From positions 49,372-113,371 of the forward strand of contig JAGUYM010000014.1 of assembly GCA_020061305.1 (NCBI GenBank): a DNA stretch of 64,000 nucleotides, written 5' to 3'. The notes under the pieces were generated by a model. It did not search any database and was not told the DNA's origin. It saw nothing but the letters and a program-made list of their open reading frames with translations. Position numbers and translations under genes: made by a program. This DNA is from Candidatus Woesebacteria bacterium. GTDB taxonomy: Bacteria > Patescibacteriota > Microgenomatia > UBA8517. Below, one piece after another: positions 1,423-27,826 of this stretch. The stretch's first letter is position 1, and each line of letters starts with the position of its first letter.

Positions 1423-3132
1423 ATGCCAAAGAAAATTGCTCTAATTCTTCTTTCTTCACTCTTATTTATTAATTCGCTCATCATGCCTTTTGCAGTTGTC
1501 AAGGCAGCAGACGAAGAACCTTCTACTTGGTACAATCAAGGTTTTACTGATTGGTATGCAAAAGTATACGGAGATGAGTCCCCACCATCAGAAATTTTTG
1601 GAGAGCGCTACACAGCAGCCCAAGTTCAATGGATTATATATTCACTTTTTGCATTTCCGATAAATTTTCTAGGAAGTAAAATGCAAACAGTCACAGCTTG
1701 TTTATACAGTGTATCAAACCCAATTATAAATATAAATGATCTGTCGTGTGCACAAGACATTGCTTCGCTGCTAACGGATGCATTTAAGTTGATGAACATG
1801 TCTGGAATTATAACCGTTGGACAAGGCCCTACATCTTTCACCGAAGCTATTGTCTACGACTTTCAAAACAGACAATTATCTGGAATAAAATATACACAAA
1901 ACATAGTATCAAGATTTGGTCTAGTATCAGTTGCGAAAGCACAAGGTTTTGGGTATGGCGCAGTTGACGGATTACAAAAATACTGGCAGGGCTTTCGAGA
2001 TATGGCATATGCCTTATCCGTATTGGTCGTAATTGTTTTTTCCTTCATGATTATGTTCAGAGTTAAATTGTCACCACAACTAGTTATTTCCGTCCAATCT
2101 GCTTTACCAAAAATTGTTGGGGCCTTAGTGTTAGCCACCTTTTCGTATGCAATTGCAGGTTTTGTGATAGATTTTTCATACGTGGTCGGTGGATTGTTTG
2201 CATCGTTGATGTCACTTGCTGGATTTGTCAGCACAAACGGACAACAAGGAACAGCATTCCAAATTGCTTTCAACCAAATAATGCCAATTCAAGGAACCCA
2301 AGCTACTGGTGGATTTTATATCTTATTTTGGATGTTTGGATACACATTAGCATTTTTCCTTACGGCAGTTGTGGCGTTACTATCAACAGTTGTTGGGTTG
2401 TCAGTTTATGGCTTTGTTGTAGGTCTAGTTATGGTTTTGTTGTCTGTATGGATACTAATACTCATGGTTTGGTATATGATTAAAGTGCCTTGGGTTTTAC
2501 TTAAAAATTTAGTTAGTTTGTTTGTATCGATAGTCGTAGCTCCAGTTCAAATTGTTGCTGGGGCGCTTATTCCTTCAATTGGTTTTAGTGTCTGGATTAG
2601 AAAGATAATTGCAGAAGCATTAGTTTTTCCATTAACAGGTCTTTTTATGTTTTTAGCTGGTGCAACACTGCAAGCATCAATGGGAGCAAGTGGAGGTCAA
2701 ATGTTACAAGGGCTTGCTTCTATAATAGGAATACAAGTACCGCAAACAAGCTTATGGGCCCCTCCAATTTTGGGTTCAAGTGCAGATATGGCAGGGATAA
2801 TTTGGCTATCTGTAAGTTTTGTTTTCATTACAATGATACCTAAGGCAGTTGATATCATGAAGATGCTTGTCATGGGTGCTAAATTTGACTATGGTAGTGC
2901 AATAGGTGAAGCAGCTGGTGCATTTGGTATATTACCAACAGCGCAAAAGGCTGTTCAAGGTACATTTAGTGATATCGGACAAACTTGGGGGACTCAACAG
3001 ACTGTTCCATTTATAAAAAGTTTGTTTCAAAGAAGAGATCGTTATGGAATGTCAAGTGTAGATTATGATGAAAGGTTCAGACAACTTAACCCAGATCTTC
3101 AAGCTTCGGCTGGACCAAGAAACAAAAAATAG
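1423..3132 (+). CDS. polytopic membrane protein with cleavable signal peptide, first gene of the T4SS-like locus; candidate VirB6/TrbL-like channel component by context only
   Basis: 569 aa. The N-terminus is MPKKIALILLSSLLFINSLIMPFAVVKAADEE (signal peptide plus AxA site), followed by more than 10 hydrophobic helices, many glycine-rich. Confidence 0.5.
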   Translation: MPKKIALILLSSLLFINSLIMPFAVVKAADEEPSTWYNQGFTDWYAKVYGDESPPSEIFGERYTAAQVQWIIYSLFAFPINFLGSKMQTVTACLYSVSNPIININDLSCAQDIASLLTDAFKLMNMSGIITVGQGPTSFTEAIVYDFQNRQLSGIKYTQNIVSRFGLVSVAKAQGFGYGAVDGLQKYWQGFRDMAYALSVLVVIVFSFMIMFRVKLSPQLVISVQSALPKIVGALVLATFSYAIAGFVIDFSYVVGGLFASLMSLAGFVSTNGQQGTAFQIAFNQIMPIQGTQATGGFYILFWMFGYTLAFFLTAVVALLSTVVGLSVYGFVVGLVMVLLSVWILILMVWYMIKVPWVLLKNLVSLFVSIVVAPVQIVAGALIPSIGFSVWIRKIIAEALVFPLTGLFMFLAGATLQASMGASGGQMLQGLASIIGIQVPQTSLWAPPILGSSADMAGIIWLSVSFVFITMIPKAVDIMKMLVMGAKFDYGSAIGEAAGAFGILPTAQKAVQGTFSDIGQTWGTQQTVPFIKSLFQRRDRYGMSSVDYDERFRQLNPDLQASAGPRNKK

Positions 3133-3155: not shown

Positions 3156-4736
3156 CTAGACAACTCCTCTCTTTGACAACTGTCTATAAACACCCATCCA
3201 TGACATATCATTGGCAAAATTAATGTTATACCATTTTTCAACTACTTCTTTGATCCATTTCACTGACTCTTTACTAAGATAAGCATTCACCTCTCCTTTG
3301 CTAGTTGGAATTTTTCTCATCAAGGTGTCAAATAATCCATTCACCACAATATTGTCCCACCCTTGCATTGCTGCCTCAGTTGAATTTTCCACTATTGACC
3401 CAACCATCCCAATGACAAATTCATTTCGTAAATGTAAAACCTCTTCTGGATCAGAAGTATCAGATGGAGCTATCCACCCTTCAATCGCGTCTGATGTTAA
3501 ATCTTTGGGTGACCATGTTGTTTGTAAGCACATAGATTTAAAGGTCAATATTCGAGGAACCATAATTCCTAACCATCCAGCATAGTCGCCAGGTTTAATT
3601 GCGTCGAAATTCATTTTGTTAAAGTCAATTGTTTCATAATTATTGTCTTGGTCGATAGCGCTTCTTGTTCGCATACCTCGAATTCGTGTCAATGGATCAC
3701 CAATCTCAGCCAAATATGCGGGGTGCATTCTAGGAATATCTAAAAACAACATTTTATTAAATTCCCTAGGTTTTCCATCATTCCCAATCAACATCTCCCC
3801 CGCCTTATTCGGGTCCGGCAATTGAATTTTTTCTTGTATTTGCGCACTCCTAAAATAAGATGATCCAAATCCTTTTATCCTTTTAATTGTGATCATGGGG
3901 CCTCTATCTCTGGCAGCATTTAAACGACCTTCCCTGTATTTTTGAAAATAAATAGCCTCAGCCAATGGGTCTGATCCTTGTAGATCAGTATTCCAAACAG
4001 CTGTTTCGAGTGTTGCTTTAGCTATACGATAAGCAAGCTGCAATGACTTTTTGGCTTCCTTATTTCTTCCCAACCTATCTTCTAGAATTTTCATAATTGC
4101 TTCCATCTCACCCTGCTCAATGTCTTTACTACTCAATCTAACTGTTCTTCCGTTAATTTCCACTCCCTCAATATGTGCAGCTTGCAATAAATCAAAAGCT
4201 TTTGAAACATTAAGACCGGGTAATTCTTTTAAAATTGTAAAATCGACACCTTCTAGTGTCCATTTTTTCGATTCAGCTTGTTGGAAAGACTGTAACAAAA
4301 ACGGTGCTGCATCCTTTGCGCTTCCAGGTATCGCGGAAGCTACCGCATAACAATGTTGGAGTCTTAGTCTTGCAACAGCTTGTCGTTTGACCAGTGGGGC
4401 ACAATTTTCATTAGAAAGTAATTCGTTTAACACCCTCATTGTTCCCTCATTCGTAGTAGAATATAATCCAGGAGTTGGTACTATCTGGTTGTCATTTGCC
4501 TCAATTTTTTCAACCAACTTTATGATTAAATTGCGTTGCTCATCTTCTGATCTTGGTAATTTTATTGATTCATTTGCTTCCGCAATTTTCTCAGATGATT
4601 CTGCAATTCTCGACAGATAATCTTCAATCACGGGCTTCCTAGGAACAGGCGCGGATTCACCTCTTTGAGCTTTCTTTCTTAATTCGCTAATTCCCCACTG
4701 TTTGCTAGCTATGATTACAGTTTCACCTTCTGCCAT
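3156..4736 (-). CDS. hypothetical soluble protein (526 aa) in the accessory locus
   Basis: Long ORF with no nucleotide-binding or relaxase motif recognised. A GTAC-heptamer module lies in its upstream region (4765-4818). Confidence 0.55.
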   Translation of the reverse strand: MAEGETVIIASKQWGISELRKKAQRGESAPVPRKPVIEDYLSRIAESSEKIAEANESIKLPRSEDEQRNLIIKLVEKIEANDNQIVPTPGLYSTTNEGTMRVLNELLSNENCAPLVKRQAVARLRLQHCYAVASAIPGSAKDAAPFLLQSFQQAESKKWTLEGVDFTILKELPGLNVSKAFDLLQAAHIEGVEINGRTVRLSSKDIEQGEMEAIMKILEDRLGRNKEAKKSLQLAYRIAKATLETAVWNTDLQGSDPLAEAIYFQKYREGRLNAARDRGPMITIKRIKGFGSSYFRSAQIQEKIQLPDPNKAGEMLIGNDGKPREFNKMLFLDIPRMHPAYLAEIGDPLTRIRGMRTRSAIDQDNNYETIDFNKMNFDAIKPGDYAGWLGIMVPRILTFKSMCLQTTWSPKDLTSDAIEGWIAPSDTSDPEEVLHLRNEFVIGMVGSIVENSTEAAMQGWDNIVVNGLFDTLMRKIPTSKGEVNAYLSKESVKWIKEVVEKWYNINFANDMSWMGVYRQLSKRGVV

Positions 4737-4764
4737 AGCAATATTTTACCATTTTTATTCCCAC

Positions 4765-4818
4765 TTATTCCACTTTGTGAAAAGAGGCAGTACAGAGTAC
4801 ACAGTACTAAGTACAAAG
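4765..4818. repeat. dispersed promoter-proximal module copy A: TTATTCCACTTTGTGAAAAG followed by a GTAC-heptamer array
   Basis: Copy A is near-identical to copies at 5338-5384 and 6210-6282. All three sit 20-60 nt upstream of minus-strand gene starts. Confidence 0.7.
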
Positions 4819-5337
4819 AAAGAACAAAAAGAAGAAAACTTCGTAGAAATAGCTAATGAAATTAGTATTAAGTCAATTTGTAGAAAAAACAACGAGTAAG
4901 CAAGACAGGCAACGTCTATTAATTTTTAGAAAGGTTTTTTGTAACAAAATAATATACTCCCAAGAAGAAGGCTATTGACAGTATTGCCCAAAAATAAAGT
5001 GTGTTCATTTTTTAATTTTCTTTACAATAAAGTATACCATAATCAGTAAAATCGCACTTGCAAAACTAGCAATTGTGTTAAACCTTATAATATCATTAAA
5101 TTCAATCATTTTTTATTTCCCTGTTCAATAATTATAACACCAGCACTCAAAAACAGACCGCTGAATAGTGTTCCCTAAAATAACGAGAATAAAATATCTT
5201 TTGGATTTCGAATATTTCCCAACAGAATACTTATTACGCCTGAAGCAAACCACGCAACTCCGATGTTGGATAAAAATTCAGCAATCAACTGAAGTTTTTG
5301 TGATGACTTATCCATCATATTAAAATTGTAGCATAAT

Positions 5338-5384
5338 TTATTCCACTTTGTGAAAAAGGACAGTATAGAGTACATAGTACATAA
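5338..5384. repeat. dispersed promoter-proximal module copy B
   Basis: Sequence TTATTCCACTTTGTGAAAAAGGACAGTATAGAGTACATAGTACATAAG. The first 20 nt are almost identical to copy A. Confidence 0.7.
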
Positions 5385-5481
5385 GAGACTTGACTACGTT
5401 AAAGCAAAGCTTACCACTTCGTGGTAGTACAAAGTTCACAGAAAAAAATAGGGCCAGAACTAGGCTGTTTAAAGTCCTTAA

Positions 5482-5808
5482 TTAAGAGTACGATAAAAAT
5501 CTAATATCTAATTTACTATCTAATGCTTCTGCAAGTTTTTGAAGGAAATTTACAGTTGGACTTATATTCCCTTTTTCTAATCTAGAAATTGCAGATTGAG
5601 TTGTACCAAGTTTTTTTGCAAGTTCCTTTTGGGAAAGATCTTTTTTTCTTCTGATATCAATCATTGCCTGAATCATTGCAAATTCTGGCTGTTGTCTGTC
5701 CCACTCGGCCTTAAACTCTGGATCTTTTAGCTGTTTGTTTAAAAAAACATTAAAATCTAGATGATTTCTCTTTTCTGGTGGAATATTTAAAACTTTTTTG
5801 TTTGTCAT
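5482..5808 (-). CDS. higA: XRE-family HTH antitoxin (HigA-like)
   Basis: The HTH is QKELAKKLGTTQSAISRLEKGNISPTVNFLQKLAEAL. It lies immediately downstream of a Gp49/HigB-family toxin gene, in the toxin-first order typical of higBA. Confidence 0.75.
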   Translation of the reverse strand: MTNKKVLNIPPEKRNHLDFNVFLNKQLKDPEFKAEWDRQQPEFAMIQAMIDIRRKKDLSQKELAKKLGTTQSAISRLEKGNISPTVNFLQKLAEALDSKLDIRFLSYS

Positions 5809-5820
5809 ATACCGTATATG

Positions 5821-6183
5821 CTATATTATACTGTTCATTCTGTCAATCGCTATTTTTAGTTCTTTGGTTGGAGTTTTTTGAGTTTTCTTCTTAAAGATGT
5901 GGAGAATGTAATATTCGTTATTAAAGATTGTGTAAAAAGCTCTGATATTTAATTTACTTTTGATTCGTAGTTCGTATAAATTGCTCTGCAATTTTTTGAT
6001 TTGTGGGGGTTTTAAAAACGGACCGTTGTTTTGAAGGAGCGAGAAATAACTAAATACTTTTGTTGAAATTTCGTTATCTTGATCAGTGAGAAAATCGTTA
6101 ACAGGATAATCCCCTCGTTTAGTCTGATAAAATTTAACAACCCACGTTTTCTGAATTGCAATAGAGCTGTCATTGGTTGACAT
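5821..6183 (-). CDS. higB: HigB/Gp49-family (RelE-superfamily) addiction-module toxin
   Basis: The C-terminus, LYELRIKSKLNIRAFYTIFNNEYYILHIFKKKTQKTPTKELKIAIDRMNS, matches the Gp49 signature (lyELRi...yRi.Yf...i.lLhgFkKKtqktP..ei..A). The start is placed at the internal ATG (6183) because the longer ORF runs through the GTAC repeat array. Confidence 0.75.
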   Translation of the reverse strand: MSTNDSSIAIQKTWVVKFYQTKRGDYPVNDFLTDQDNEISTKVFSYFSLLQNNGPFLKPPQIKKLQSNLYELRIKSKLNIRAFYTIFNNEYYILHIFKKKTQKTPTKELKIAIDRMNSII

Positions 6184-6209
6184 AATATAAATATATACCA
6201 AAACTATAT

Positions 6210-6282
6210 TTTGTGAAAATGTTGGTGTAGTTGCACCATGAACAGTACAGAGTACACAGTACTTAGTACAAAGAAAGTACTG
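6210..6282. repeat. dispersed promoter-proximal module copy C (TTTGTGAAAA + CAGTACAGAGTACACAGTACTTAGTACAAAG)
   Basis: Shares the GTAC array of copy A almost base for base and lies directly upstream of higB. Confidence 0.7.
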
Positions 6283-6316
6283 TGAAACAACAAGCAAGTT
6301 GCAACAAAAGCTTCAC

Positions 6317-6382
6317 ATAGTACGATAAAGTAGTACCTAGTACAAAGTACGCAGTACAGAGTACAAAGTACGCAGTACAGAG
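6317..6382. repeat. GTAC-heptamer array D (AGTACNA units, about 9 copies) in the divergent higB / 6401 intergenic region
   Basis: Sequence CATAGTACGATAAAGTAGTACCTAGTACAAAGTACGCAGTACAGAGTACAAAGTACGCAGTACAGAG. Confidence 0.7.
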
Positions 6383-6400
6383 AATAGACAAACGCAAAAC

Positions 6401-6780
6401 ATGGTTAATAGCTATAAAGATTTGATTGTTTTTCAGAAATCTAAAACTCTAACTATTGACGTAATCAAGTATTTTAAGAAAAACAAAACAGACAGATCAA
6501 ATGATTTTTTACTTAACCAAGTTTTTAGATCTGTAAGTTCAGTTGGAGCTAATTTAGCTGAAGGTTTTGGAAGAAATTACAGTCAAAATTTTAAGCAATT
6601 TGTTGGAATTGCCAGAGGTTCATCTTTCGAGACTGAATATTGCTTGAAATGTTATTAGAATTAAACGATTTTGACTCAAAAATAATTAAGGAATTTATAG
6701 AAAAAAATATAGAAATAAATAAAATGTTAACAGGATTAATGAAAAATATGAAAGGAGAATCGACTAAGTACTAAGTACTC
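6401..6780 (+). pseudogene. frameshifted four-helix-bundle protein (Avd-like / 23S rRNA intervening-sequence protein family, PF05635-like)
   Basis: Frame 1 gives ...NQVFRSVSSVGANLAEGFGRNYSQNFKQFVGIARGSSFETEYCLKCY*. The expected continuation, LEMLLELNDFDSKIIKEFIEKNIEINKMLTGLMKNMKG, is in the -1/+2 frame from about 6648. This is a single-nucleotide indel or sequencing error. Confidence 0.55.
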
Positions 6781-6794
6781 TGTACTATGTACTG
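6764..6794. repeat. GTAC-heptamer array E immediately upstream of the 6807 gene
   Basis: Sequence CTAAGTACTAAGTACTCTGTACTATGTACTG, in the same orientation relative to the downstream gene as in copies A-C and as upstream of dnaA. Confidence 0.7.
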
Positions 6795-6806
6795 CGTCTT
6801 CGGCGT

Positions 6807-7808
6807 ATGGAACAACATCCAATACCACAGCAGATAAGCTCATATCAATTTAAATTGGTGGGGGACATGACTTTAAAACAATTTTTTCAAGTTGCAGGAG
6901 GCGCTTTGATTGGTTTATTGTTTTATTCAACCAACCTACATCCAGTTATTAAATGGCCAATAATTCTTCTTTCAACTGGTATTGGTGCCGCTATGGCCTT
7001 TTTACCGTTTCAAGAAAGACCTTTAGAAAAATGGATAATAGCATTTTTTAGAAGTATCTACTCTCCCACGCTTTTTACATGGCAAAAAACCGAGAAGCCC
7101 CCTGTCTTTTTTACTGAAACTGCGACCGCCCCAGAAATAACTAATGTGGGCTCACTTAATCAAAAATCAGCCCTTTCTCCTCTGGAGTTGGCCGAACAGA
7201 CCTTTTTAGGTAAAATTACCAGCCTTTGGGGGACTCAACAACCAATAAACAATGGTCAACAGACAACAGTCCAAAGTCAACAGTCGCAAGTCATAAGTCC
7301 ACAGTCAGCAGTCAATAGTCCACAGTCAGTAGTCAATAGTCAACCAGCAGTAAGTGTTCAGGTTCCCTCCCAAATCCCAACTATAATTACTAAATCTGCT
7401 CCGAAACTTGTCGTTGAGGAAACTTTGCCACAAGTCCACAGTCCACAGTCCACAGTCCACAGTCTTGATGCAGTAAATATTCAGCAAAAAACTATCACTT
7501 CCAATGAAGCTGAATTTTCCCCTGATGCAGCTCCCCCATACCCACCAACCATTCCTAACACCATTGCAGGACAAGTAATGGATTCGCAAAAAAAGATCAT
7601 TGAAGGAGCCATTATGGAGATAAAAGACGGAACAGGTAGGCCTGTTAGGGCCTTAAAAAGCAACAAAGCGGGTCATTTCATAATTGTTACTCCACTCGCA
7701 AATGGTAAATATGAAATAATTACTGAAAAGGACGGATACACATTTGATCCAGTTTCATTTGAAGCTAAAGGGGAGCTAATTAAACCAATAGCTATCCGTG
7801 CTAAATAG
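6807..7808 (+). CDS. 2-TM membrane protein with PrgI/VirB3-like N-terminus, a Q/S/P/V-rich heptad-repeat linker and a C-terminal beta-rich domain
   Basis: The N-terminus has two hydrophobic helices (FFQVAGGALIGLLFYS.. and ILLSTGIGAAMAFLPF) followed by ERPLEKWIIAFF, and the gene lies directly upstream of VirB4, as PrgI/VirB3-family proteins do. The middle is encoded by CAGTCAA and CAGTCCA heptamer repeats. The C-terminus is GRPVRALKSNKAGHFIIVTPLANGKYEIITEKDGYTFDPVSF. Confidence 0.45.
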   Translation: MEQHPIPQQISSYQFKLVGDMTLKQFFQVAGGALIGLLFYSTNLHPVIKWPIILLSTGIGAAMAFLPFQERPLEKWIIAFFRSIYSPTLFTWQKTEKPPVFFTETATAPEITNVGSLNQKSALSPLELAEQTFLGKITSLWGTQQPINNGQQTTVQSQQSQVISPQSAVNSPQSVVNSQPAVSVQVPSQIPTIITKSAPKLVVEETLPQVHSPQSTVHSLDAVNIQQKTITSNEAEFSPDAAPPYPPTIPNTIAGQVMDSQKKIIEGAIMEIKDGTGRPVRALKSNKAGHFIIVTPLANGKYEIITEKDGYTFDPVSFEAKGELIKPIAIRAK

Positions 7809-7825
7809 CTCGGCAACTAATAATT

Positions 7826-8635
7826 ATGAACAAAGAATTAAAAATTAAAAACATGAACAACACAACAACACAAGGACAAAACACAACTCGTAACCCTAAC
7901 TCGCAGGCAGATGGCCAGTCACACACAACTGACAAGCCGATTATAGTTCCTGAGGTTAAAAATGAGAAATTGAGAAAGTTTATAACTAAAGTCCCATATT
8001 TTGGAACTCCTGACATGCCACTTACTTCAACTACTCAGGATTTTATTCCAATTGCTGATATTGCGAATGATATTGTTTTATTTAAAGATGGGGGAGCAGC
8101 TATTGTAATGGAATCTTCTTCACTTAATTTTGGGCTTTTATCAGAAAGGGAGCAAGCCGCGGTTGTTGCGGCTTTTGCAGCCCTTATAAATTCACTTTCG
8201 TTTTCGGTGCAAATCATGATCAGAACCCAAAGAAAAGATATTTCCGGTTATATCAAATATTTTGATGAAAAAAGCAAAAATATAACAAACCCAAAACTAG
8301 CTGCAATAACTGCGGACTACAGAGCGTTTATAACTGAGTCAATTAAGAAAAAAACAGTTTTAGGTAAAAGATTCTTTGTGATTATACCTTTTAATTCATT
8401 GGAATTGGGGGTCACCAAGTCCGCACAGAGCATACTTAGAAAAGGCCCTCTTCCATTCTCAAAAGATTATGTTCTAAAAAAGGCGAGGGTTGCACTTTTT
8501 CCAAAAAAAGATCATTTAATAAGACAGGCGGGCAGACTTGGATTAAAATTAAAGCAGCTCAAGACAAATGATTTGATAGATTTGTATTATTGGATTAACA
8601 ATCCTGAGCCGCCAGCGGTGAAGAAAGATATATAG
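7826..8635 (+). CDS. virB4: VirB4/TraC/CagE family, N-terminal domain only (upstream half of a split VirB4)
   Basis: The segment FIPIADIANDIVLFKDGGAAIVMESSSLNFGLLSEREQAAVVAAFAALINSLSFSVQIMIRTQRKDISGYIKY matches the conserved VirB4 N-terminal block. The ORF stops at TAG, overlapping the GTG that opens the next ORF (ATATAGTGATT). Confidence 0.65.
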   Translation: MNKELKIKNMNNTTTQGQNTTRNPNSQADGQSHTTDKPIIVPEVKNEKLRKFITKVPYFGTPDMPLTSTTQDFIPIADIANDIVLFKDGGAAIVMESSSLNFGLLSEREQAAVVAAFAALINSLSFSVQIMIRTQRKDISGYIKYFDEKSKNITNPKLAAITADYRAFITESIKKKTVLGKRFFVIIPFNSLELGVTKSAQSILRKGPLPFSKDYVLKKARVALFPKKDHLIRQAGRLGLKLKQLKTNDLIDLYYWINNPEPPAVKKDI

Positions 8636-10464
8636 TGATTAGTAAAAACATGCAAGACATTAACACAAAAAAACAAGAGCAAAACATAAATAGCAAACCT
8701 GCTGTTAAACATCCTGTGAGCGAGATTGAGGAGGGAAAACAATTGCTTGATGTAATTGCACCTGATCATGTCGAGGTGGATTTTAATCATATTAAAGTTA
8801 ACAATGTTTATTACAGAACACTTTTTATTGGAGGCTACCCTAGATTTGTTGCACCTGGATGGCTTGAACCTGTGATTAATTTTAATTCATCACTTGATAT
8901 CAGTTTTTTTGTATATCCTGTTGCAGGCAAGTCTGTACTTGATGATCTTCGTAGAAAAATTGCAGAAATGGAAGCAGAAATCTCGACAGATATTCAAAGA
9001 GGAAGAGTTGTTGACCCAGCAACAACCGCCAAACTTGAGGATGCAAGGGCATTGCAAGAACAACTTGTCAAGGGGATTGAAAGATACTTTGAGTTTTCAT
9101 TTTATATCACAATTCCTGCTAATTCAGTTGAAGAACTAAACAATGTCTCAAGACAAATTGAGTCACTTTTAGGATCACTCCTAATTATTGCAAAACCTGC
9201 GACTTTAGACCAAAAAGAGGGATTTCTTTCAACCGTTCCGTATGGACAAGATAGACTGTCAATTACCAGAAATATGGATACAACATCTGTTGCTACAACT
9301 TTTCCATTTACTTCAGCTGAGCTTAGCTCGGATACCGGTGTTTTATATGGCATAAACTCACAAAATGAGTCATTTATTATCTTTGATAGATTTTCTCTGG
9401 AGAATGGGAACATGACAGTCTTTGCTACATCAGGCGCAGGAAAGTCTTATTTCGTTAAACTTGAAGCTATTAGATCACTCATGATAGGCTCAGATGCAAT
9501 TATTCTTGACCCTGAAGCTGAATATAAAACACTTTGTGAAGCTGTTGGAGGAGAATACATTGCATTTTCATATAATTCGCCTGCAAAAATTAATCCTTTT
9601 GACCTTTCTCAGATTAGAGAAGAAGGAGAAAACCAATTAGGTCTTAAAATTCTTTCACTTCATTCATTAATGAAGGTAATCATGGGCCAAATAACACCGA
9701 CCCAAGATGCCATGCTTGATAGAGCTTTAGTTATGACTTATAAAGCAAGGGGAATTACAACTGACCCTGAAACTCAAACCAAGGAACCGCCTTTGATGGA
9801 AGATCTTTATAAAACATTAATCGGAATGGAAGTCCCGGAAGCGCTTGACTTAGCTGCTCGTCTTGAAAAATTTGTAAGAGGCTCATTCCAAGGTATTTTT
9901 GACAAACAAACAAACATTAACTTAAATAATCCATTCACTGTTTTTTCAGTCAAGGATTTACAAGAAGCCCTTCGTCCAATTGCTATGTTTATTATCCTTG
10001 ATTATATTTGGACTAGAGTTAAAAGGGATATAAAGCGTCGAATTCTAATCGTTGATGAGGCATGGCATATGATGAGGTATCCCGATACTGCAGCCTTTCT
10101 CTGGTCAGTCGTCAAAAGGGCTAGAAAATACTATCTAGGACTCACCACAATCACTCAAGATGTTGAAGATTTTCTTGGACAGGACATTGGTAAGGCAATT
10201 GTCACAAATAGCGCCTTAAGGCTTCTTCTGAAACAATCTCCGGCAGCAATTGATAAGATAGGGGAAGTTTTTTATCTCTCACAGGGGGAAAAACAACTGC
10301 TTCTGGCTGCAAATGTGGGGGAGGGCATATTTTTTGCAGGACCACACCACGCACCGATTAGAGTAGTAGCGTCAGAAGAAGAACATAAATTAATAAATAC
10401 AAGACCACAAGACAATCCATTACCAACAATGCCAAACATGAAAGCATGGAACAGGGAAGCCTAG
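8635..10464 (+). CDS. virB4: VirB4/TrbE/CagE-family T4SS ATPase, central and C-terminal part
   Basis: It carries the family block LLDVIAPDHVEVDFNHIKVNNVYYRTLFIGGYPRFVAPGWLEPVINFNSSLDISFFVYP, a Walker A FATSGAGKSY and a Walker B RRILIVDEAWHMM. It is in the -1 frame relative to 7826..8635 and open from 8608 without an ATG. Confidence 0.85.
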   Translation: MISKNMQDINTKKQEQNINSKPAVKHPVSEIEEGKQLLDVIAPDHVEVDFNHIKVNNVYYRTLFIGGYPRFVAPGWLEPVINFNSSLDISFFVYPVAGKSVLDDLRRKIAEMEAEISTDIQRGRVVDPATTAKLEDARALQEQLVKGIERYFEFSFYITIPANSVEELNNVSRQIESLLGSLLIIAKPATLDQKEGFLSTVPYGQDRLSITRNMDTTSVATTFPFTSAELSSDTGVLYGINSQNESFIIFDRFSLENGNMTVFATSGAGKSYFVKLEAIRSLMIGSDAIILDPEAEYKTLCEAVGGEYIAFSYNSPAKINPFDLSQIREEGENQLGLKILSLHSLMKVIMGQITPTQDAMLDRALVMTYKARGITTDPETQTKEPPLMEDLYKTLIGMEVPEALDLAARLEKFVRGSFQGIFDKQTNINLNNPFTVFSVKDLQEALRPIAMFIILDYIWTRVKRDIKRRILIVDEAWHMMRYPDTAAFLWSVVKRARKYYLGLTTITQDVEDFLGQDIGKAIVTNSALRLLLKQSPAAIDKIGEVFYLSQGEKQLLLAANVGEGIFFAGPHHAPIRVVASEEEHKLINTRPQDNPLPTMPNMKAWNREA

Positions 10465-10484: not shown

Positions 10485-13217
10485 ATGAATAAAACACTTG
10501 ATTTAAAAGCATTAGTTGCCATACAAGAGGCGCTTGAGCGTTTTTATCCAAGAGAATTAGGGCTTGAAGGTAGCGTTGAGTTTAAAAAATGGGGAGAATG
10601 GCCAAGCAAAGAAGTTTTTTGGGAACAACTTAAAACATATCCTGAATTTAAAAATATTAAAACTCAAAAAGAAGCTTCAGGTTTATTACAAAAGTTAATC
10701 GATGAGAAAACAAAAGGAGCAGAAGCTCCAGGGCAACCTGATTCAAATTTACCACAAAATAGAGAGGCGAATGAAGAATTAAGAAAGAAAAGTGAAGAAT
10801 TGCACACAGAAACACGGGAAGGCTCAAAACAAGCTGTTGAGACAATGCAAAAGAGGCAACAGGAAATGTATGAAGAGGCACAAAAGCTTAAAAAACAAGC
10901 AGAGGAATTAAAAAATAATGAACAACTAACCAAAGACCTTACAGGTAAAAAAATATATGCCAAAATTGAAGTAGAGGATACACCAAGCCTAGACGAAGAC
11001 AAACAACAAAAACTTGAACGCTACAAAGAACTTTCAAAAAATAAACCAGAAACTGCCAAAGAAGAACTGGCCAAAGAACTTGAAGTATCAATTGAAAAAC
11101 AATTTGCAAAAGAAGATTTAACCAAAGAAGAAATAAAATCAATTGCAAGGGAAACTGCAAGTGAAACCATAGAAACTTTATCCAAAATTGATTCTCCTGA
11201 TTACGTTCCTACAACTTATCAAACAGCAATACTTACTGCAGTTGCCGTTGATGATAAAGTTGTACCTAAGGTTGCCATATCAAAATCTGCAACAGAAATT
11301 GTAAAAAATTCTGCGGGTCATGTTGCAGTTTTTAAAATTCAGCCCGAACTTTTAACTAGAGGAATAATAGAAACTGCATTTGGAAAGGATTTTACCAATT
11401 TTGTTCTTGGTGTTGACCCTTCAAAAGTTGAGGTTACACTAGTTGAAACAATTCCCCAAAATTTACCAAGAGAAGAATTGGTTAAGTATAAAGAAGTTAA
11501 TCTTCAAAATATTCGCGAATCTCACACAAACATCTTAGAGTGGAATTCCTCTGTATTAGAAAAGGCTTCATCAGTAGGTAAAGGATATGCAGATAGATAT
11601 ATGTCTTCAGGAATTGCTAATTTTATAACAAGAAGAATTGAGGCGCTTCCTGTAAATTCTGTTGTTAAAAAAGTAGTTACCACGCCTGAAATGCAGGCTA
11701 TGTTTTTTGCAAAATTTGGAGTAGGTAGTCCTGTGGTTTGGCAATATGCAAATCCGACTTTAATGAAGCTTTTTGGCCAAAATCAATTAGCTGGCGCCGC
11801 CTTCAGCACCGTAGGAAGAATTACTGGAAAACCAATTGTAACTGCAGTTACAGGAGAAGTTGCAGGTCAGGTTGCTGGCAAAGTTGCCACGCAAGCCGCA
11901 GGTAAAGCAACGGGCGCAGGTCTTGGTGCAACGATTGGTGCAATCACTGGCTTATCGGGTGGGCCACTTGCAATTGTAACGGCAGCAGTTGGCTATGTAA
12001 TAGGTGAGGTTTTTGGTAAGGTAATTTCAAAACTTAAAGTTTGGTGGACTAAAAATAAAGATAAAATTGCGCCGATTTTGGGAGTTGGGGTAGGGTTATC
12101 CTTTGCAAGATTTGGGTTTGGACCGGCGATTTTAGGTGGTGCTGGGACTTATTTACTTTTTGGTGGTACTGCGACGGCCTTACTTTTTGGCCCAATGAGA
12201 TTTTTTGCAATTTTAGGAAGAAACATTGGAATTACAATTGCAACTCCTGTAATAGTTACCCTTTTGGTCCTCCCCCCGCTCGTCGCCTTCATTATGCTTG
12301 TCATTAACAACAGTGCCTATGTTGTACCACCAAGCCCGCTCAGTTTTAATCGTGGCGGAGTGATAACTTCTCCTTATATTGATATAACCAAAACTGCAAC
12401 CCCCCCGGGTCCGTTTGAAAATTCTGATTTACCCTTAACTGTAACATACACCATAACAATAAAGGCCAAAAAAGGACCGCTTACTAACATAAAAATTGAT
12501 TATGCATGTAGGGTAGTTAAATCTAATTCATCAACTGTTTGCCCCGAACCAAACGGAACAATCCCTACAACAACTAGCGGAATTTCACCCTCTGCCCCTT
12601 TTGTTTTTTCATATTCTCAAACTTATGATCCCCTAAATTTTGAGGACTCTTTTGTTACTGATACAGTTACTATAACCGCAGACGAACCCTCAGCAAAAAA
12701 CATTCAAGCCGCAGCAGCGGCAACAATAAAAATAGGTGAACCACCAGAAGAATGTCCAACAGAAGAATTGTGGCCTACAAGTAATGGCGTTATTACACAA
12801 GGTGCTTATACAAACGGCTCACATAAAGGGACAGAATCAATTGACATTGGTGTTAGCAGTACTAATGTTTTTACAACACATTCAGGTGTTGTGGTTTTTT
12901 CCGGTTTTGATTCATGTTATGGTAACGAAATTAAAATTAAATCTTCTTGTGGTGGAAAAGAGTTTATAAGTAGATATTCACACCTTGAAGCTCGAAGTGT
13001 TACAAATGGGGCTTCTGTTTCAATGGGGCAAGTTATTGGTAGAAGTGGAAATACTGGGACATGCACCACAGGACCACATGTTCATTATGAATTTAGATTC
13101 TGGCCAGACGGAAAGCCAAGTTGGCCAAACAACCCTCCATTCATGATGAGACCTTATATTCCAAGAGATGTTCCCAGAGGATGTGAAAATTCTATAAGTT
13201 GTGGTGTATCATTTTAG
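10485..13217 (+). CDS. T4SS-associated cell-wall hydrolase: K/E-rich coiled-coil N-terminus, glycine-zipper TM segments, C-terminal M23 (LytM-type) metallopeptidase
   Basis: 910 aa. The C-terminus is GSHKGTESIDIGV...YSHLEAR...GRSGNTGTCTTGPHVHYEFR (M23 HxxxD and HxH motifs). The middle is a G/A-rich run (GAGLGATIGAITGLSGGPLAIVTAAVGYVIG..), and the N-terminal 230 aa is K/E/Q-rich. Confidence 0.7.
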   Translation: MNKTLDLKALVAIQEALERFYPRELGLEGSVEFKKWGEWPSKEVFWEQLKTYPEFKNIKTQKEASGLLQKLIDEKTKGAEAPGQPDSNLPQNREANEELRKKSEELHTETREGSKQAVETMQKRQQEMYEEAQKLKKQAEELKNNEQLTKDLTGKKIYAKIEVEDTPSLDEDKQQKLERYKELSKNKPETAKEELAKELEVSIEKQFAKEDLTKEEIKSIARETASETIETLSKIDSPDYVPTTYQTAILTAVAVDDKVVPKVAISKSATEIVKNSAGHVAVFKIQPELLTRGIIETAFGKDFTNFVLGVDPSKVEVTLVETIPQNLPREELVKYKEVNLQNIRESHTNILEWNSSVLEKASSVGKGYADRYMSSGIANFITRRIEALPVNSVVKKVVTTPEMQAMFFAKFGVGSPVVWQYANPTLMKLFGQNQLAGAAFSTVGRITGKPIVTAVTGEVAGQVAGKVATQAAGKATGAGLGATIGAITGLSGGPLAIVTAAVGYVIGEVFGKVISKLKVWWTKNKDKIAPILGVGVGLSFARFGFGPAILGGAGTYLLFGGTATALLFGPMRFFAILGRNIGITIATPVIVTLLVLPPLVAFIMLVINNSAYVVPPSPLSFNRGGVITSPYIDITKTATPPGPFENSDLPLTVTYTITIKAKKGPLTNIKIDYACRVVKSNSSTVCPEPNGTIPTTTSGISPSAPFVFSYSQTYDPLNFEDSFVTDTVTITADEPSAKNIQAAAAATIKIGEPPEECPTEELWPTSNGVITQGAYTNGSHKGTESIDIGVSSTNVFTTHSGVVVFSGFDSCYGNEIKIKSSCGGKEFISRYSHLEARSVTNGASVSMGQVIGRSGNTGTCTTGPHVHYEFRFWPDGKPSWPNNPPFMMRPYIPRDVPRGCENSISCGVSF

Positions 13218-13228
13218 TAATATAAAAC

Positions 13229-14227
13229 ATGATAAATAACAAAAAAAAGATCTATATAGCCCTTTCCTCTGTTGCAGCATTTTCTGTTTTTATCTTAATT
13301 TATGTCATTAACAAAAATGGGCCCGATCCAGAAATATCACCATTAAAACCCAATATCCAAGGAGGGATACAAGGAGACTTTTCTAAAAAAATTGAATTTT
13401 CCCAATTTGACTACGAAATACCAAAAAATTTACCCACATTAACATTCAAGCTTCTTTCTATAAACAAGGACATTGTGGTTAAAATTAAAAACTCTCTAAG
13501 TATTGATTCAGGTATTGAAGAATTTACCGATGTAGATGAAGGGGTAAAATATTTTCTGAATACCGACGATGCTTTTTTAGTTATTACTCCAAAAGTAAGC
13601 AAAATTAAATACGGACTACACCGTTTACCCACCAATCTAAAAAATGAGTTGTCAATATCAGAAGATCAAATTAAAAACATTGCTTTGGCTTTCTTAAACG
13701 ATAAACTACTAAATAACAACTTTGTTTTGCCAAATGAGATATTATATTTAAAACATAGCATTAATAGTGAGGGTTTTGAGAAAACAAACAATAATAGCGA
13801 GGCAGTTGTTTATCAAGTTAATTTCACCCCAGCATCCGCACAAAATTATAAAATTGTAACATCAAGATCTGAAAACCCAACAACTTTTGTTCAGATTACC
13901 AAAAGTGGAGAGATTTACTATGCTGAAACGACATTGTTTGATGAAATTTCTAAAAGCCCCTCAAATTATCCAGTTAAGGGATTTGGTGATATTCAAGATA
14001 GTTCAAACGATTTCAAGCTTATTAATCTTTCAGGTGATTATTTGTCAGTATTGGAAATCTCAATTAGTAACATAAAAAAAATAATTATTAATGATATTGA
14101 AGTTGTTTATTTTTGGGACCAGAAAGTAGACAGTTTTCTTCAACCAATTTTTATACTAAATGCAGATATTGAAATTTCTGGATCTACAGCAAACAAAGCT
14201 ATCTTTTATCTTCCTGCTTTTAAATAA
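13229..14227 (+). CDS. signal-anchored extracytoplasmic protein, last gene of the T4SS-like locus
   Basis: An N-terminal TM (IYIALSSVAAFSVFILIYVI) precedes a 300-aa hydrophilic domain. It is tightly spaced after the M23 gene. Confidence 0.5.
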   Translation: MINNKKKIYIALSSVAAFSVFILIYVINKNGPDPEISPLKPNIQGGIQGDFSKKIEFSQFDYEIPKNLPTLTFKLLSINKDIVVKIKNSLSIDSGIEEFTDVDEGVKYFLNTDDAFLVITPKVSKIKYGLHRLPTNLKNELSISEDQIKNIALAFLNDKLLNNNFVLPNEILYLKHSINSEGFEKTNNNSEAVVYQVNFTPASAQNYKIVTSRSENPTTFVQITKSGEIYYAETTLFDEISKSPSNYPVKGFGDIQDSSNDFKLINLSGDYLSVLEISISNIKKIIINDIEVVYFWDQKVDSFLQPIFILNADIEISGSTANKAIFYLPAFK

Positions 14228-14675: not shown

Positions 14676-15791
14676 TTAGCTGTTTTTAATAGGCATTATG
14701 AGGTGGAGGAAGGTGGGAGAGGAAGAATCTAAAAATTTTCCTGCTTTACTTTCTTCGCTAAATTCCATTACTACCTCATCTGCCTTTACTACTTTTAAAT
14801 AATCCTCAATAAATTTATAGTTATATGAAATTTCAAAATCTTTTACATCTTCATCGTTTTCCACTTTTGCCTCAATTTCATTTTCCTGACTTCCTGTAGT
14901 TTGATTCTCTGAAACAATCCTGACTTTGGACTGATGACTATTGACTTGTAACTTAATAATATTTCCTGCTTCTCTTGCGAAAACTGATGCAAGTTTAATG
15001 GCTTTAACTAATTCCTCTTTATCTAAAACAACTCTTAATTTGTGTTTATCAGGTATAATTTTTTGATAGTCTGGATAACTTCCTTCAATTATTCTACTGG
15101 AATAAAGACAGTCCTCAATCGAAGCAATAAATTGACCATTTTTTTCATCAATAGAAATAAAAACATCTTCTTCTGATTCATTTTTTAATATTTCATAAAG
15201 AATATTTTTAGGCACGACTGGTTTTTCAAAATCTTTAGGAGTTTTTTTAGTATCAACTTTTATTTTTGAAAGTCTAAATCCATCAGTTGAAATAAAATAG
15301 AGATCACCATCTATAAAATCAAATAAAACTCCTGTTAGAATAGGCCTTGTTTCATCAAGGGATAATGAAAACAAGGTATTAAGCAAGGCAGTGTTTAACT
15401 CACTTTTTTTGATTACAAATCCTTCCTTTTTAGAAGTATTGGGGATTTTTGGAAAATCTGTAGCATTTAAACCTAAAATAGTTGATTTAAACGAACCGGA
15501 AGAAATTTTTATTTTTTCTTTGTCTTCATTAATTTCAATTTCATTATTAAGGTTTAAGACAATATCCAAAAAAGTTTTACCTGGAACTGTTATTTCTCCT
15601 TCCTTTTCAACTTTAGCTGGAATTTTAAGACTAACTGCATTTTCAAGGTTAGTAGCAGAAAATGAAACTTTAGAACCAGAAGCTGATATTAAGATATTTC
15701 CAAGTATCGGAAGCTGTGTTTTAGCTGAAATAAAATGAGATGCTGTACTAACAGTTCTTTTTAGATTTTCTGCTGAAGTTATGAATTTCAT
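14676..15791 (-). CDS. dnaN: DNA polymerase III beta sliding clamp
   Basis: 371 aa starting MKFITSAENLKRTVSTASHFISAKTQLPILGNILI. It has the three-domain length and sits immediately downstream of dnaA. Confidence 0.9.
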   Translation of the reverse strand: MKFITSAENLKRTVSTASHFISAKTQLPILGNILISASGSKVSFSATNLENAVSLKIPAKVEKEGEITVPGKTFLDIVLNLNNEIEINEDKEKIKISSGSFKSTILGLNATDFPKIPNTSKKEGFVIKKSELNTALLNTLFSLSLDETRPILTGVLFDFIDGDLYFISTDGFRLSKIKVDTKKTPKDFEKPVVPKNILYEILKNESEEDVFISIDEKNGQFIASIEDCLYSSRIIEGSYPDYQKIIPDKHKLRVVLDKEELVKAIKLASVFAREAGNIIKLQVNSHQSKVRIVSENQTTGSQENEIEAKVENDEDVKDFEISYNYKFIEDYLKVVKADEVVMEFSEESKAGKFLDSSSPTFLHLIMPIKNS

Positions 15792-15962: not shown

Positions 15963-17333
15963 TTATCCCAATAGCATTTTTTTAATCCCCGATAAATCCC
16001 CTTGAATATCCACATTTGTTGAGGCTAAAAGCTGAATGTTATCAACAGCATGCATTACAGTGGTATGATCTTTTCCACCAACAATTCTCCCAACTGTTTG
16101 GTAAGGGAGATTAATTTGAGTTCTTAAAATATACATCAAAATTTGTCTTGGTCTTGAATAAATCCTTGCCCGTGATTCACCCAGTAAGTCCCTTTTATTT
16201 ATTGAATAATATTTAGCAATTGTTTTAACTATTTCTTCAGGGCTTGCTTTAATCTTGCTTTCTTCTAGACCGTTATTTTTACCTATTATTTTTTGTATGT
16301 TATCTATTGTCAGTTCGCCACCCTTTAGATTTATATCAGTGAAAAGTCTAACTAAAAAGCCCTCTATAGCCCTTGCAGACTCAATGTTTCCAGCAATTAA
16401 TGAGACCATGTCAGGATCAAGTTTTAATCCTCTTTCCTCTGCTTTAATTTGGACAATGGCTGATCTTAATTCAAAATCGGGTGGGGCAACATCAACAATT
16501 AACCCCGCTTCAAATCTACTCCTTAAACGCAGCTCGAGTTTTGATATCTCTGATGGAGGTTTATCTGATGTTAAGACAACCTGGCCTCCGGCAGTTGTGA
16601 CTGCGTTAAATGTATGGAAAAATTCTTCCTGAGCAGTGTCTTTACCTGCTATAAATTGAATATCGTCGATAAAAAGAGCTTCAAGTTTTCTGTATTTCTT
16701 TCTAACCTCAGCGGTGGTCTTATTTCTTATCCCATCAACAATATCATTAGTAAAGTCTTCTGCAGTGCAGGCAATAATTTTAGCCCTGGGATTTTTGGAG
16801 ACGACAACATGGCCAATTGCATGCATCAGATGGCTTTTTCCTACACCTACTCCTCCCCAAATAAAAAGGGGATTATAGGCATGTCCTAAATTTTTAGAAA
16901 CAGCTTCCGCAGCAGCATGTGCCAATTGGTTTGAACCTGAGACCGCAAATTTATCAAATGTATAAGAAGGCCTGATTCTTGCGTTTTTAATGGCCTCATC
17001 TATTTCTTGTTTATTTACTTTAGGCTCATCAAAAAGTGGGGTTGGCTTTTCTATTGACTGTTGACTATTGACTGTTGACTGTTTGACAATAAATGTTATA
17101 TCAACTGGCTTTTCAAGAATCTTTGACAGAGTGTCTTGAATTAAACCAAAATACCTTTGTTCTACTTGGGCTTTAATGTAAAAGGACATGCAACCAATTT
17201 CAATCACAACTCTTCCTCCAACTTCTTTTAAATCATGGATGTGAGAATGCACGAGATATGTACCATACGTGGCGCTTGATACCGAAAGTTTTAATAAATT
17301 TAAAGTGTCTTTCCAGAGTTTGTCTTTATCCAT
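15963..17333 (-). CDS. dnaA: chromosomal replication initiator DnaA
   Basis: The protein has a Walker A GGVGVGKSHLMHAIGH, box VII, and the C-terminal HTH block GGKDHTTVMHAV. The start is set at MDKDKLWKDTLNLL (17333). The ORF-track start at 17360 extends into the GTAC repeat. Confidence 0.93.
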   Translation of the reverse strand: MDKDKLWKDTLNLLKLSVSSATYGTYLVHSHIHDLKEVGGRVVIEIGCMSFYIKAQVEQRYFGLIQDTLSKILEKPVDITFIVKQSTVNSQQSIEKPTPLFDEPKVNKQEIDEAIKNARIRPSYTFDKFAVSGSNQLAHAAAEAVSKNLGHAYNPLFIWGGVGVGKSHLMHAIGHVVVSKNPRAKIIACTAEDFTNDIVDGIRNKTTAEVRKKYRKLEALFIDDIQFIAGKDTAQEEFFHTFNAVTTAGGQVVLTSDKPPSEISKLELRLRSRFEAGLIVDVAPPDFELRSAIVQIKAEERGLKLDPDMVSLIAGNIESARAIEGFLVRLFTDINLKGGELTIDNIQKIIGKNNGLEESKIKASPEEIVKTIAKYYSINKRDLLGESRARIYSRPRQILMYILRTQINLPYQTVGRIVGGKDHTTVMHAVDNIQLLASTNVDIQGDLSGIKKMLLG

Positions 17334-17504
17334 GGTTGTAGCACATAGTACAAAGTACAAAGTACATAGAGGGAAAGAAAATGGAGCAGAAATATTTTTC
17401 TAAGTACAAAGTACTAAGTACTTGGCATTATTCTTTTACAAAAGTTATCCACAATTGTAAAGAGGCAATTTACAATTTATACTTTTCAATTTACAATACG
17501 CTTA
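17334..17504. promoter_or_regulatory. divergent dnaA / rpmH control region with a consensus DnaA box and GTAC-heptamer arrays
   Basis: A TTATCCACA box lies at 17445-17453. GTAC arrays lie at 17345-17369 (ATAGTACAAAGTACAAAGTACATAG) and 17401-17425 (TAAGTACAAAGTACTAAGTACTTGG). Confidence 0.55.
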
Positions 17505-26495: not shown

Positions 26496-26546
26496 AAATG
26501 TATTTTAACCTAAAAACTTGATTTTTGCAGAAATAGAGAGTACATT

Positions 26547-26792
26547 ATGCTAATGTCAAAAGAATTTACAGAATTTACTCCCAGGTTAATAGAGGATAGT
26601 ATAAGTTTGCTCAGTTATGCTTATAGATCGCGGATTAAGGTTGGTAAATTGGCTGATGGTGTTTCTGTGGTAGAGATGAATCCAACAAAAACAAATGCGT
26701 ATATATGTTATTTCGAAAATCTAGAAAATTGTGGAAGATGCACTATAAAAAAATGTCCATCCAATAATAACCCAAATAAAAAAGAGGGTTAA
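26547..26792 (+). CDS. hypothetical small protein
   Basis: 81-aa ORF between valS and tsaD with no recognisable motif. Confidence 0.25.
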   Translation: MLMSKEFTEFTPRLIEDSISLLSYAYRSRIKVGKLADGVSVVEMNPTKTNAYICYFENLENCGRCTIKKCPSNNNPNKKEG

Positions 26793-27823
26793 AGACTAAG
26801 TCTTGGATTTATGTCAACATCGTCGATGTTTTTATATTTAGCATTTAGTTTTTGATTCTTAAGATATGCTGTTGTTCCAATCATTCCTGCATTATCTCCA
26901 GTTAGCCTTATACTGTATGGTATATGCATTATGATGTTATTTTTTCTACAAATTTTGCGAAGTTTTTTTCGCAGTTCAACATTCGCTGATACTCCACCCC
27001 CAAGTAACATATGGCTTATAGTATATGGCATATTGCTAATTTGGTACTCAAGAACACGGCAAATATGTTCGAAGGCTACGGATTGAAAACAAGCGGCGAG
27101 ATCGTAAATATCTTGTTTTGTTGGATTTTTAATAGTTTCAAAAAGTCTCACAAACGCAGTTTTTAAGCCAGAATAACTAAATCTATTTTTCTCTTTATCA
27201 TTTATCAGGGGAATTGGAAGTTTAAATCTATTAGGATTTCCATGTTTTGCCATTTTTTCTAAAATAGCTCCCCCTGGATAACCAAAACCTAAAAGTCTTG
27301 CAGACTTGTCTAAAGCTTCACCTAAGGCGTCATCAGAAGTTTGAGCCAATATCTCATATTCACCAATATTTTTGATTAAAACCAACATTGTTGTTCCTCC
27401 AGAAAGCACCAAACCGAAACTTGGAAATTGGAAATTTTTACTTATGACTTTTGACTTGGGACTTGCAATCGGAGAGAGCAGATGACTTTCTATATGATTT
27501 ACGGGAATTAATGGTTTGTTGTATTTTTTGGCTAATTCTTTTGCATAATTCACGCCAACTGACAAGGCTATTGCCAACCCTGGACCAGTTGTTACTGCAA
27601 CAGCATCGATATCCTTAAGAGCTTTATGTTTTTTGCCTAATGCTTTATATACAACAAACTCAATACGCTCGGTGTGCATACGTTGGGCAAGGCTAGGGAG
27701 TACTCCTCCAAAGCTGGAGTGGAGGCTAGATTGCGACCAAACCACATTCGAAAATATCTGGGATTTGTGCGTAACTGCTGCCGCAGTCTCATCGCAACTT
27801 GTATCGATGGCTAATATATTCAT
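26789..27823 (-). CDS. tsaD: tRNA N6-adenosine threonylcarbamoyltransferase TsaD (Kae1/Gcp family)
   Basis: MNILAIDTSCDETAAAV plus the HxEGH-type metal-site blocks (NHIESHLL) and the C-terminal GGGVSAN. Confidence 0.9.
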   Translation of the reverse strand: MNILAIDTSCDETAAAVTHKSQIFSNVVWSQSSLHSSFGGVLPSLAQRMHTERIEFVVYKALGKKHKALKDIDAVAVTTGPGLAIALSVGVNYAKELAKKYNKPLIPVNHIESHLLSPIASPKSKVISKNFQFPSFGLVLSGGTTMLVLIKNIGEYEILAQTSDDALGEALDKSARLLGFGYPGGAILEKMAKHGNPNRFKLPIPLINDKEKNRFSYSGLKTAFVRLFETIKNPTKQDIYDLAACFQSVAFEHICRVLEYQISNMPYTISHMLLGGGVSANVELRKKLRKICRKNNIIMHIPYSIRLTGDNAGMIGTTAYLKNQKLNAKYKNIDDVDINPRLSL

Positions 27824-27826
27824 AAA

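Follow-up and report, generated by a model that had tools for sequence, protein, structure and literature searches.

The window analysed here is a stretch of 64,000 nucleotides (nt) from a Candidatus Woesebacteria bacterium (contig JAGUYM010000014.1, positions 49,372 to 113,371). On its forward strand it carries two adjacent open reading frames (ORFs) which together cover a VirB4-type ATPase of a type IV secretion system (T4SS). The first, ORF1 (nt 7826–8635, 269 amino acids (aa)), is TrsD/TraD-like and represents a detached N-terminal module of VirB4, while ORF2 (nt 8650–10464) carries what remains of the N-terminal domain together with the ATPase domain and its Walker A and B motifs. The two are very probably separate, functional and co-transcribed genes, trsD-like and virB4, of a chromosomal T4SS of the type found in Patescibacteria of the Woesebacteria/Microgenomates group. 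An earlier note on this DNA had offered four readings of the split, namely a genuinely two-piece VirB4, a -1 frameshift site, an inactivating mutation and a sequencing error, and the first of these is the correct one, with the split present in 77 of 79 related species and both halves under selection.

ORF1 ends with GAT ATA TAG, and the last base of this stop codon (nt 8633–8635) is also the first base of a GTG in the frame of ORF2. The latter frame lies at -1 relative to ORF1 and is open from nt 8608, immediately after a TGA at nt 8605–8607. It offers two candidate starts, the overlapping GTG at nt 8635, which would give a protein of 609 aa, and the ATG at nt 8650, which is called as the start of ORF2, gives 604 aa and is separated from the ORF1 stop by a spacer of 14 nt (nt 8636–8649). 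Residues 1–55 of ORF1 form a low-complexity tail rich in Asn, Gln and Thr that is missing from many relatives. The remainder (residues 56–269, nt 7991–8632) is a conserved core, modelled as an alpha/beta domain, which contains the FIPIADI...SFSVQIM block (FIPIADI at nt 8042–8062, SEREQAAVVAAFAALINSLSFSVQIM at nt 8141–8218) and finishes with a conserved C-terminus, ...NNPEPPAVKKDI (...PPAVKKDI), at which many relatives from many species also stop. The Walker A (FATSGAGKS, nt 9421–9447) and Walker B (ILIVDEAWH, nt 10042–10068) motifs, read in translation, are both intact in ORF2. The ORF coordinates, the -1 frame and its opening at nt 8608, the motifs and the junction string given in the earlier note were all verified in the sequence.

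ORF2 is readily recognised as a VirB4-like ATPase. It scores 384.3 bits against NF045971 (conju_CD1110; cut-off 325, E = 1.2e-114) and 109.8 bits against Pfam P-loop_TraG (cut-off 25.8, E = 1.6e-31), and by BLASTP it aligns end to end (residues 7–583 vs 9–628, E = 3e-48) with TrsE, the VirB4-type ATPase of the Staphylococcus aureus conjugative plasmid pGO1. In the CD1110 model it spans positions 183–735 of 752, leaving the first 180 or so positions off this polypeptide, and, judged from the sequence matches, it is ORF1 that supplies family positions of about 1–180. The same conclusion is reached with NF045975 (VirB4_plasma, NCBIfam, 894 positions), to which ORF1 matches at positions 103–216 and ORF2 at positions 278–893. 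Because these matches follow one another, the two ORFs correspond to consecutive, non-overlapping parts of one VirB4-type protein, which bears out the earlier assignment of ORF1 as the N-terminal block and ORF2 as the rest. When ORF1 and ORF2 were concatenated in silico, the product matched TIGR00929 (VirB4_CagE) in a single stretch (positions 6–724 of 792) and TcpF from model position 2.

The N-terminal piece of VirB4 was thus seen in the earlier note, where it was not recognised as a named and published family, TrsD/TraD. ORF1 matches the NCBIfam TrsD model NF041427 with 24.4 bits (E = 2.1e-5; curated cut-off 200), and a family profile built from 85 relatives matches pGO1 TrsD end to end by hhalign with a probability of 95.5% (E = 1.6e-8; 179 columns, ORF1 core 13–205 of 214 vs TrsD 32–217 of 227). 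Precomputed annotation lists PF26593 (TraC-like) as 'weak' for ORF1 and all its close homologues; in a local copy of Pfam, from which the PF26593 model may be absent, ORF1 matched no family even with the threshold relaxed to E ≤ 10. Searching the PDB with a sequence profile of the ORF1 family returned only unrelated proteins (best E = 0.44). Structural modelling of the core with AlphaFold2, from an alignment of 85 diverse sequences, gave a mean predicted local distance difference test (pLDDT) score of 88.1 and a predicted template modelling (pTM) score of 0.78; a first model, which rested on a shallow alignment (17 sequences with identities of at least 63%), was unusable (pLDDT 44.6). When the good model was compared with the PDB by Foldseek, the top 14 matches were TrwK/VirB4 chains of the R388 T4SS (probability 0.95–1.00, TM(query) 0.33–0.52), and other matches were much weaker.

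Natural fusions of the two parts also occur. Two closely related loci encode the TrsD-like and VirB4 parts as one polypeptide (L060, 914 aa, nt 3959–6703; L070, 869 aa, nt 4007–6616), joined by a variable Pro/Gly-rich linker of about 45–90 aa. A more distant single-ORF fusion with almost no linker (P0148, 787 aa) was found in a search of 1.84 billion cluster representatives, and matches the CD1110 model as one stretch (positions 3–735 of 752). Many other TrsD-like representatives (among P0122–P0269) have the conserved domain at residues of about 5–205, followed by a C-terminal tail of 100–500 aa; the eight such tails tested matched no Pfam family.

The split is neither recent nor peculiar to one assembly. 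Five contigs from different samples (Logan SRR6488462, JGI 3300037880, JGI 3300007351, JGI 3300007354 and NCBI GCA_020062945.1) match the window with 100% identity over the junction (nt 8560–8720), and all five assemblies encode the identical 269-aa ORF1 protein. The JGI 3300007351 contig is identical to the window over nt 7078–8899, after which an unrelated alpha/beta-hydrolase gene replaces the rest of virB4, which points either to a chimeric assembly or to a rearranged variant. Among about 5.8 billion proteins searched, 1665 homologues of ORF1 were found, and the best 120 are all stand-alone proteins of 206–349 aa from Patescibacteria, Woesebacteria or Microgenomates.

Gene order was then compared in one genome per species, mostly of Woesebacteria/Microgenomates, giving 80 loci, 79 of them with enough downstream sequence. 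In every one of these 79, an ORF2 homologue (VirB4) comes directly after the ORF1 homologue on the same strand, and in 77 a stop codon lies between the two genes, the remaining two being the fusions L060 and L070. The examination of VirB4 homologues in related genomes that the earlier note had proposed therefore finds the split to be conserved. Its exact form is not. Among the 74 split loci with an identifiable ORF2 start, the frame of ORF2 relative to ORF1 takes all three values (39, 27 and 8 loci), the last group having ORF2 in the same frame as ORF1, behind an in-frame ORF1 stop. The two genes share an ATGA overlap in 26 of these loci and another overlap, of 1–14 nt, in 13, and are separated by a gap of 1–241 nt in 35. 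Pairwise comparisons with ten species gave ratios of nonsynonymous to synonymous substitution rates (dN/dS) of 0.05–0.10 for ORF1 and 0.02–0.08 for ORF2, values that are approximate because dS was saturated in most comparisons and two gave no estimate; both ORFs are under strong purifying selection. Selection on both, all three relative frames and such a mixture of junctions are what two separately translated, tightly linked genes would show, and cannot be reconciled with a sequencing error, a recent pseudogene or a conserved programmed frameshift.

The closest relatives of the window are metagenome-assembled genomes (MAGs) of Woesebacteria/Microgenomates. Many related MAG records (L002, L004, L007 and others) are titled 'uncultured Gammaproteobacteria bacterium' or 'uncultured Pseudomonadales bacterium', and these carry the Patescibacteria-type trsD-virB4 pair with 55–80% identity to Woesebacteria; their taxonomy labels are probably wrong. 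A separate peculiarity was seen in the virB4 gene of ten of the 79 related species (L010, L011, L029, L035, L041, L055, L059, L069, L071 and L072), where an in-frame insertion of about 530–660 aa lies inside Walker A, just after GAGK (e.g. L010, nt 4683–8273). Its borders (...SGAGK | S/C...FVHN | SYFVKLEA...) and internal LAGLIDADG-like motifs give it the layout of an intein with a homing endonuclease, with Ser or Cys as the first residue, a terminal His-Asn and Ser at +1. The corresponding sequence in ORF2 of the window, GAGKSYFVKLEA, is uninterrupted, and the gene lacks such an element.

The arrangement at the junction had been described in the earlier note as translational coupling through a stop overlapping a GTG (taGTG). 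The overlap is real, and tight linkage with probable coupling is typical of the family, 26 of the 74 relatives having an ATGA overlap, but the overlap at this locus is probably incidental. The ATG at nt 8650 is the more likely start of ORF2, being called as such on all of the five contigs with the full gene, and coupling through taGTG is for this reason doubtful as it was written. L001, the closest other species, has no start available for ORF2 except an ATG aligned to nt 8650, and in L010 a 14-nt duplication sits between the ORF1 stop and the equivalent GTG. Neither the GTG at nt 8635 nor the ATG at nt 8650 is preceded by a strong Shine-Dalgarno sequence; with either start the two genes are tightly linked. 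Promoter-like and terminator-like scans performed at chance level, and the sole information drawn from them is that no terminator-like site was found on the + strand between ORF1 and ORF2.

Programmed -1 ribosomal frameshifting within the overlap at nt 8608–8635 would give a fused, full-length VirB4, alone or together with a short ORF1 product. In its favour, the 27 nt preceding the ORF1 stop are free of stops in the ORF2 frame, the two pieces cover consecutive parts of one family, and the natural fusions elsewhere imply that a fused product would be functional. The likeness to genes expressed in this way (dnaX, IS3-family transposases) is superficial, limited to a layout of two successive ORFs that overlap slightly, the second being in the -1 frame; the window differs from them in having no slippery heptamer, no stimulatory structure and no conserved frame relation. 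As the earlier note had already remarked, no canonical heptamer (X XXY YYZ) is present, and none was found in nt 8608–8635 (GCC GCC AGC GGT GAA GAA AGA TAT ATA G in the ORF2 frame). The predicted RNA fold of nt 8600–8720 has a minimum free energy of -15 kcal/mol (z = -0.68), no better than shuffled sequence, neither frame nor signal is conserved among relatives whose ORF2 occupies three frames with gaps of up to 241 nt, and pGO1 has the same two-gene layout. Frameshifting is refuted as a conserved mechanism and we regard it as extremely improbable here. A recent inactivating frameshift, turning a single virB4 gene into a pseudogene, might be suspected since VirB4 is a single polypeptide of about 750–900 aa in most T4SS classes, and since two related species, as well as P0148, have fused forms. 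Yet the split is the majority state and lies at the same position as in pGO1, ORF1 finishes at the ...PPAVKKDI terminus common to many species, and dN/dS is well below 1 in both halves (about 0.02–0.10); the conservation of the split refutes this reading. The suggestion of a sequencing or assembly error, in which a single-base indel would have split one ORF, has in its favour the frame change itself and nothing more; with five independent contigs identical across the junction and dozens of other species showing the same split, it too is refuted.

A different alternative is that ORF1 encodes an independent accessory protein, for example an adaptor or regulator with partners of its own, which merely resembles the N-terminus of VirB4 and acts outside the ATPase. 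TrsD has no assigned function, its homologues in Gracilibacteria are mostly not beside virB4 (PMC12102498), and many family representatives have C-terminal tails of 100–500 aa with no recognisable domain. Set against these are the adjacency of virB4 in 79 of 79 testable loci, the existence of natural fusions, and the finding that ORF2 misses exactly those family positions which ORF1 supplies; this alternative is considered improbable. A milder variant is that a separate role of the TrsD-like protein, beyond that of a passive N-terminal subdomain, accounts for the retention of the split in about 97% of species. It could then be a separately dosed or exchangeable docking module. Its low-complexity tails vary, with 0–55 aa at the N-terminus here and as many as about 500 aa at the C-terminus elsewhere in the family, and through them different partners or substrates might be brought to the VirB4 hexamer. 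An additional, independent role for TrsD is suggested by these long variable tails and by the separation from virB4 in Gracilibacteria, and is the main surviving rival, if still an unlikely one. Should it be true, the role would already have been put to a natural test in the few re-fusions that occur.

Some observations weigh against the reading as two functional genes that jointly provide VirB4. ORF1 falls far under the cut-off of NF041427, and is a remote relative of TrsD rather than a member of the curated staphylococcal/enterococcal subfamily. With E-values of about 1e-2 the Foldseek matches are marginal, and the region of TrwK that was aligned is not given by the tool. The ATG at nt 8650 has no clear Shine-Dalgarno sequence, making the exact start and the mechanism of coupling uncertain, and the binding of the TrsD-like protein to VirB4 is proposed by analogy with R388.

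Under the two-gene explanation, translation of ORF2 would begin at a separate start, most likely the ATG at nt 8650, possibly through reinitiation by ribosomes that have just terminated at the TAG at nt 8633–8635. The TrsD-like protein would then bind the ATPase non-covalently, so rebuilding a complete VirB4. The solved R388 machine shows the N-terminal domain of VirB4 in contact with VirB3 and with the inner-membrane complex, and by analogy the TrsD-like protein would serve to dock the ATPase hexamer onto the PrgI/VirB3-like protein, whose gene lies just upstream.

The latter is a membrane protein of 333 aa (nt 6807–7808, + strand), the first gene of the cluster and two genes upstream of ORF2, with a match to PF12666 (PrgI) over residues 5–84 (E = 1.3e-6, 29.3 bits, cut-off 27). 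It continues with a Gln/Ser/Pro-rich linker and a C-terminal CarboxypepD_reg-like beta-sandwich (E = 2e-5, under the Pfam cut-off), and is about three times longer than the small membrane protein at the same position in pGO1 (135 aa). Downstream of ORF2 lies a gene for a membrane protein of 910 aa (nt 10485–13217, + strand). Its N-terminal third is charged and rich in Lys and Glu, its long middle part is hydrophobic and rich in Gly and Ala, and it has a C-terminal Pfam Peptidase_M23 domain (residues 784–872, E = 1.8e-18). This is a candidate for the cell-wall hydrolase (VirB1 role) of the T4SS, and it occupies the place of two separate pGO1 genes, for a membrane protein (TrsF) and a CHAP hydrolase (TrsG), whose roles it may combine; no VirB6-type family was detected in it. 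After a gene at nt 13229–14227 come dnaN (nt 14679–15791, - strand; Pfam DNA_pol3_beta domains) and dnaA (nt 15966–17360, - strand; Pfam Bac_DnaA, E = 1e-59), which place the T4SS cluster in a chromosomal, origin-proximal context. The large neighbours at nt 1423–3132, 3156–4736 and 13229–14227 matched no family in NCBIfam or Pfam. In a scan of 14 neighbouring proteins, with these three left without any family match, no relaxase domain came up.

Just upstream of the cluster are a Gp49-family toxin-like gene (PF05973) and a helix-turn-helix/MqsA-type antitoxin-like gene (nt 5480–6297, - strand, in the window; nt 1657–2358 in the independent contig L081). These are followed in the window by a gene for a four-helix-bundle protein ('23S rRNA intervening sequence protein', TIGR02436/PF05635; nt 6401–6774, + strand) which looks truncated, at 85 aa and model positions 1–73 of 109. 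An ORF in another frame (nt 6640–6774) overlaps it, and the sequence LLEMLLELNDF...INKMLTGLMKNM encoded there resembles the missing last helix. The same 85-aa call is made on L081. At 44 aa the overlapping piece is not long enough for a score against the family; the gene may be genuinely frameshifted.

A close counterpart of the pair is found in pGO1 (NC_012547), where trsD (nt 25886–26569) is followed, after a spacer of 14 nt, by trsE (nt 26584–28602), with a gene for a small membrane protein upstream of trsD and genes for a membrane protein and a CHAP hydrolase downstream of trsE. The spacer has the same length as that between the ORF1 stop and the ATG at nt 8650 in the window, and the order of small membrane protein, TrsD, VirB4-type ATPase, membrane protein and cell-wall hydrolase is shared. 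As ORF1 and TrsD, and likewise ORF2 and TrsE, are homologous end to end, the break point is the same in both. The differences are that identity is low (about 20% for TrsD and 26% for TrsE), that the hydrolase is of the M23 type in the window and of the CHAP type in pGO1, that ORF1 has an extra low-complexity N-terminal tail, and that the pGO1 genes belong to a conjugative plasmid with a relaxase whereas the window cluster is chromosomal. The traD-traE pairs of pSK41 and pIP501 are presumably equivalent to trsD-trsE of pGO1. Compared with VirB4 proteins that are single polypeptides (the CD1110 family, TcpF, TraC of F and TrwK of R388), ORF1 and ORF2 fill the family models continuously, Walker A and B are intact and the ORF1 model matches TrwK structures, but the first 180 or so family positions are on a separate polypeptide.

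A search of Patescibacteria genomes for T4SS components (Quinonero-Coronel et al. 2025, Microb Genom; PMC12102498) found TrsD to be the most abundant such component in the phylum, and usually associated with virB4. Its likeness to VirB4 was reported there, as was its occurrence outside Patescibacteria in only one subclass of MPF-FATA systems, with pGO1 as prototype and without an assigned function. According to the same study, T4SS clusters of Microgenomatia lie near dnaA and dnaN, TrsD homologues of Gracilibacteria are mostly apart from virB4, and Ca. Southlakia epibionticum ML1 has a TrsD homologue that is listed as essential. The window agrees in having a TrsD homologue directly upstream of an MPF-FATA-related VirB4, an adjacent PrgI/VirB3-like gene, and a chromosomal cluster beside dnaN and dnaA, and shows no substantive difference from that description. 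TrsD and its resemblance to VirB4 are unmentioned in the main text of Guglielmini et al. 2014 (PMC4027160), and a 2025 FEMS review of T4SS (PMC12857230) makes no mention of TrsD or of a split VirB4. The junction statistics (three frames, ATGA overlaps, two fusions) and the match of the TrsD-like protein to the TrwK/VirB4 fold are additions of the current study, neither being found in the main text of PMC12102498.

The window is therefore a textbook instance of an arrangement that is already known and is ordinary for the phylum. For annotation, adjacent ORFs that jointly cover a VirB4 model, whether in Patescibacteria or in pGO1-type elements of Gram-positive bacteria, represent a normal trsD-virB4 pair, and should be neither flagged as a frameshifted pseudogene nor merged. 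The detached N-terminal module is reported to be essential in the one genetically tractable Patescibacterium, and its role is a question already posed in the literature, to which this locus adds nothing special.

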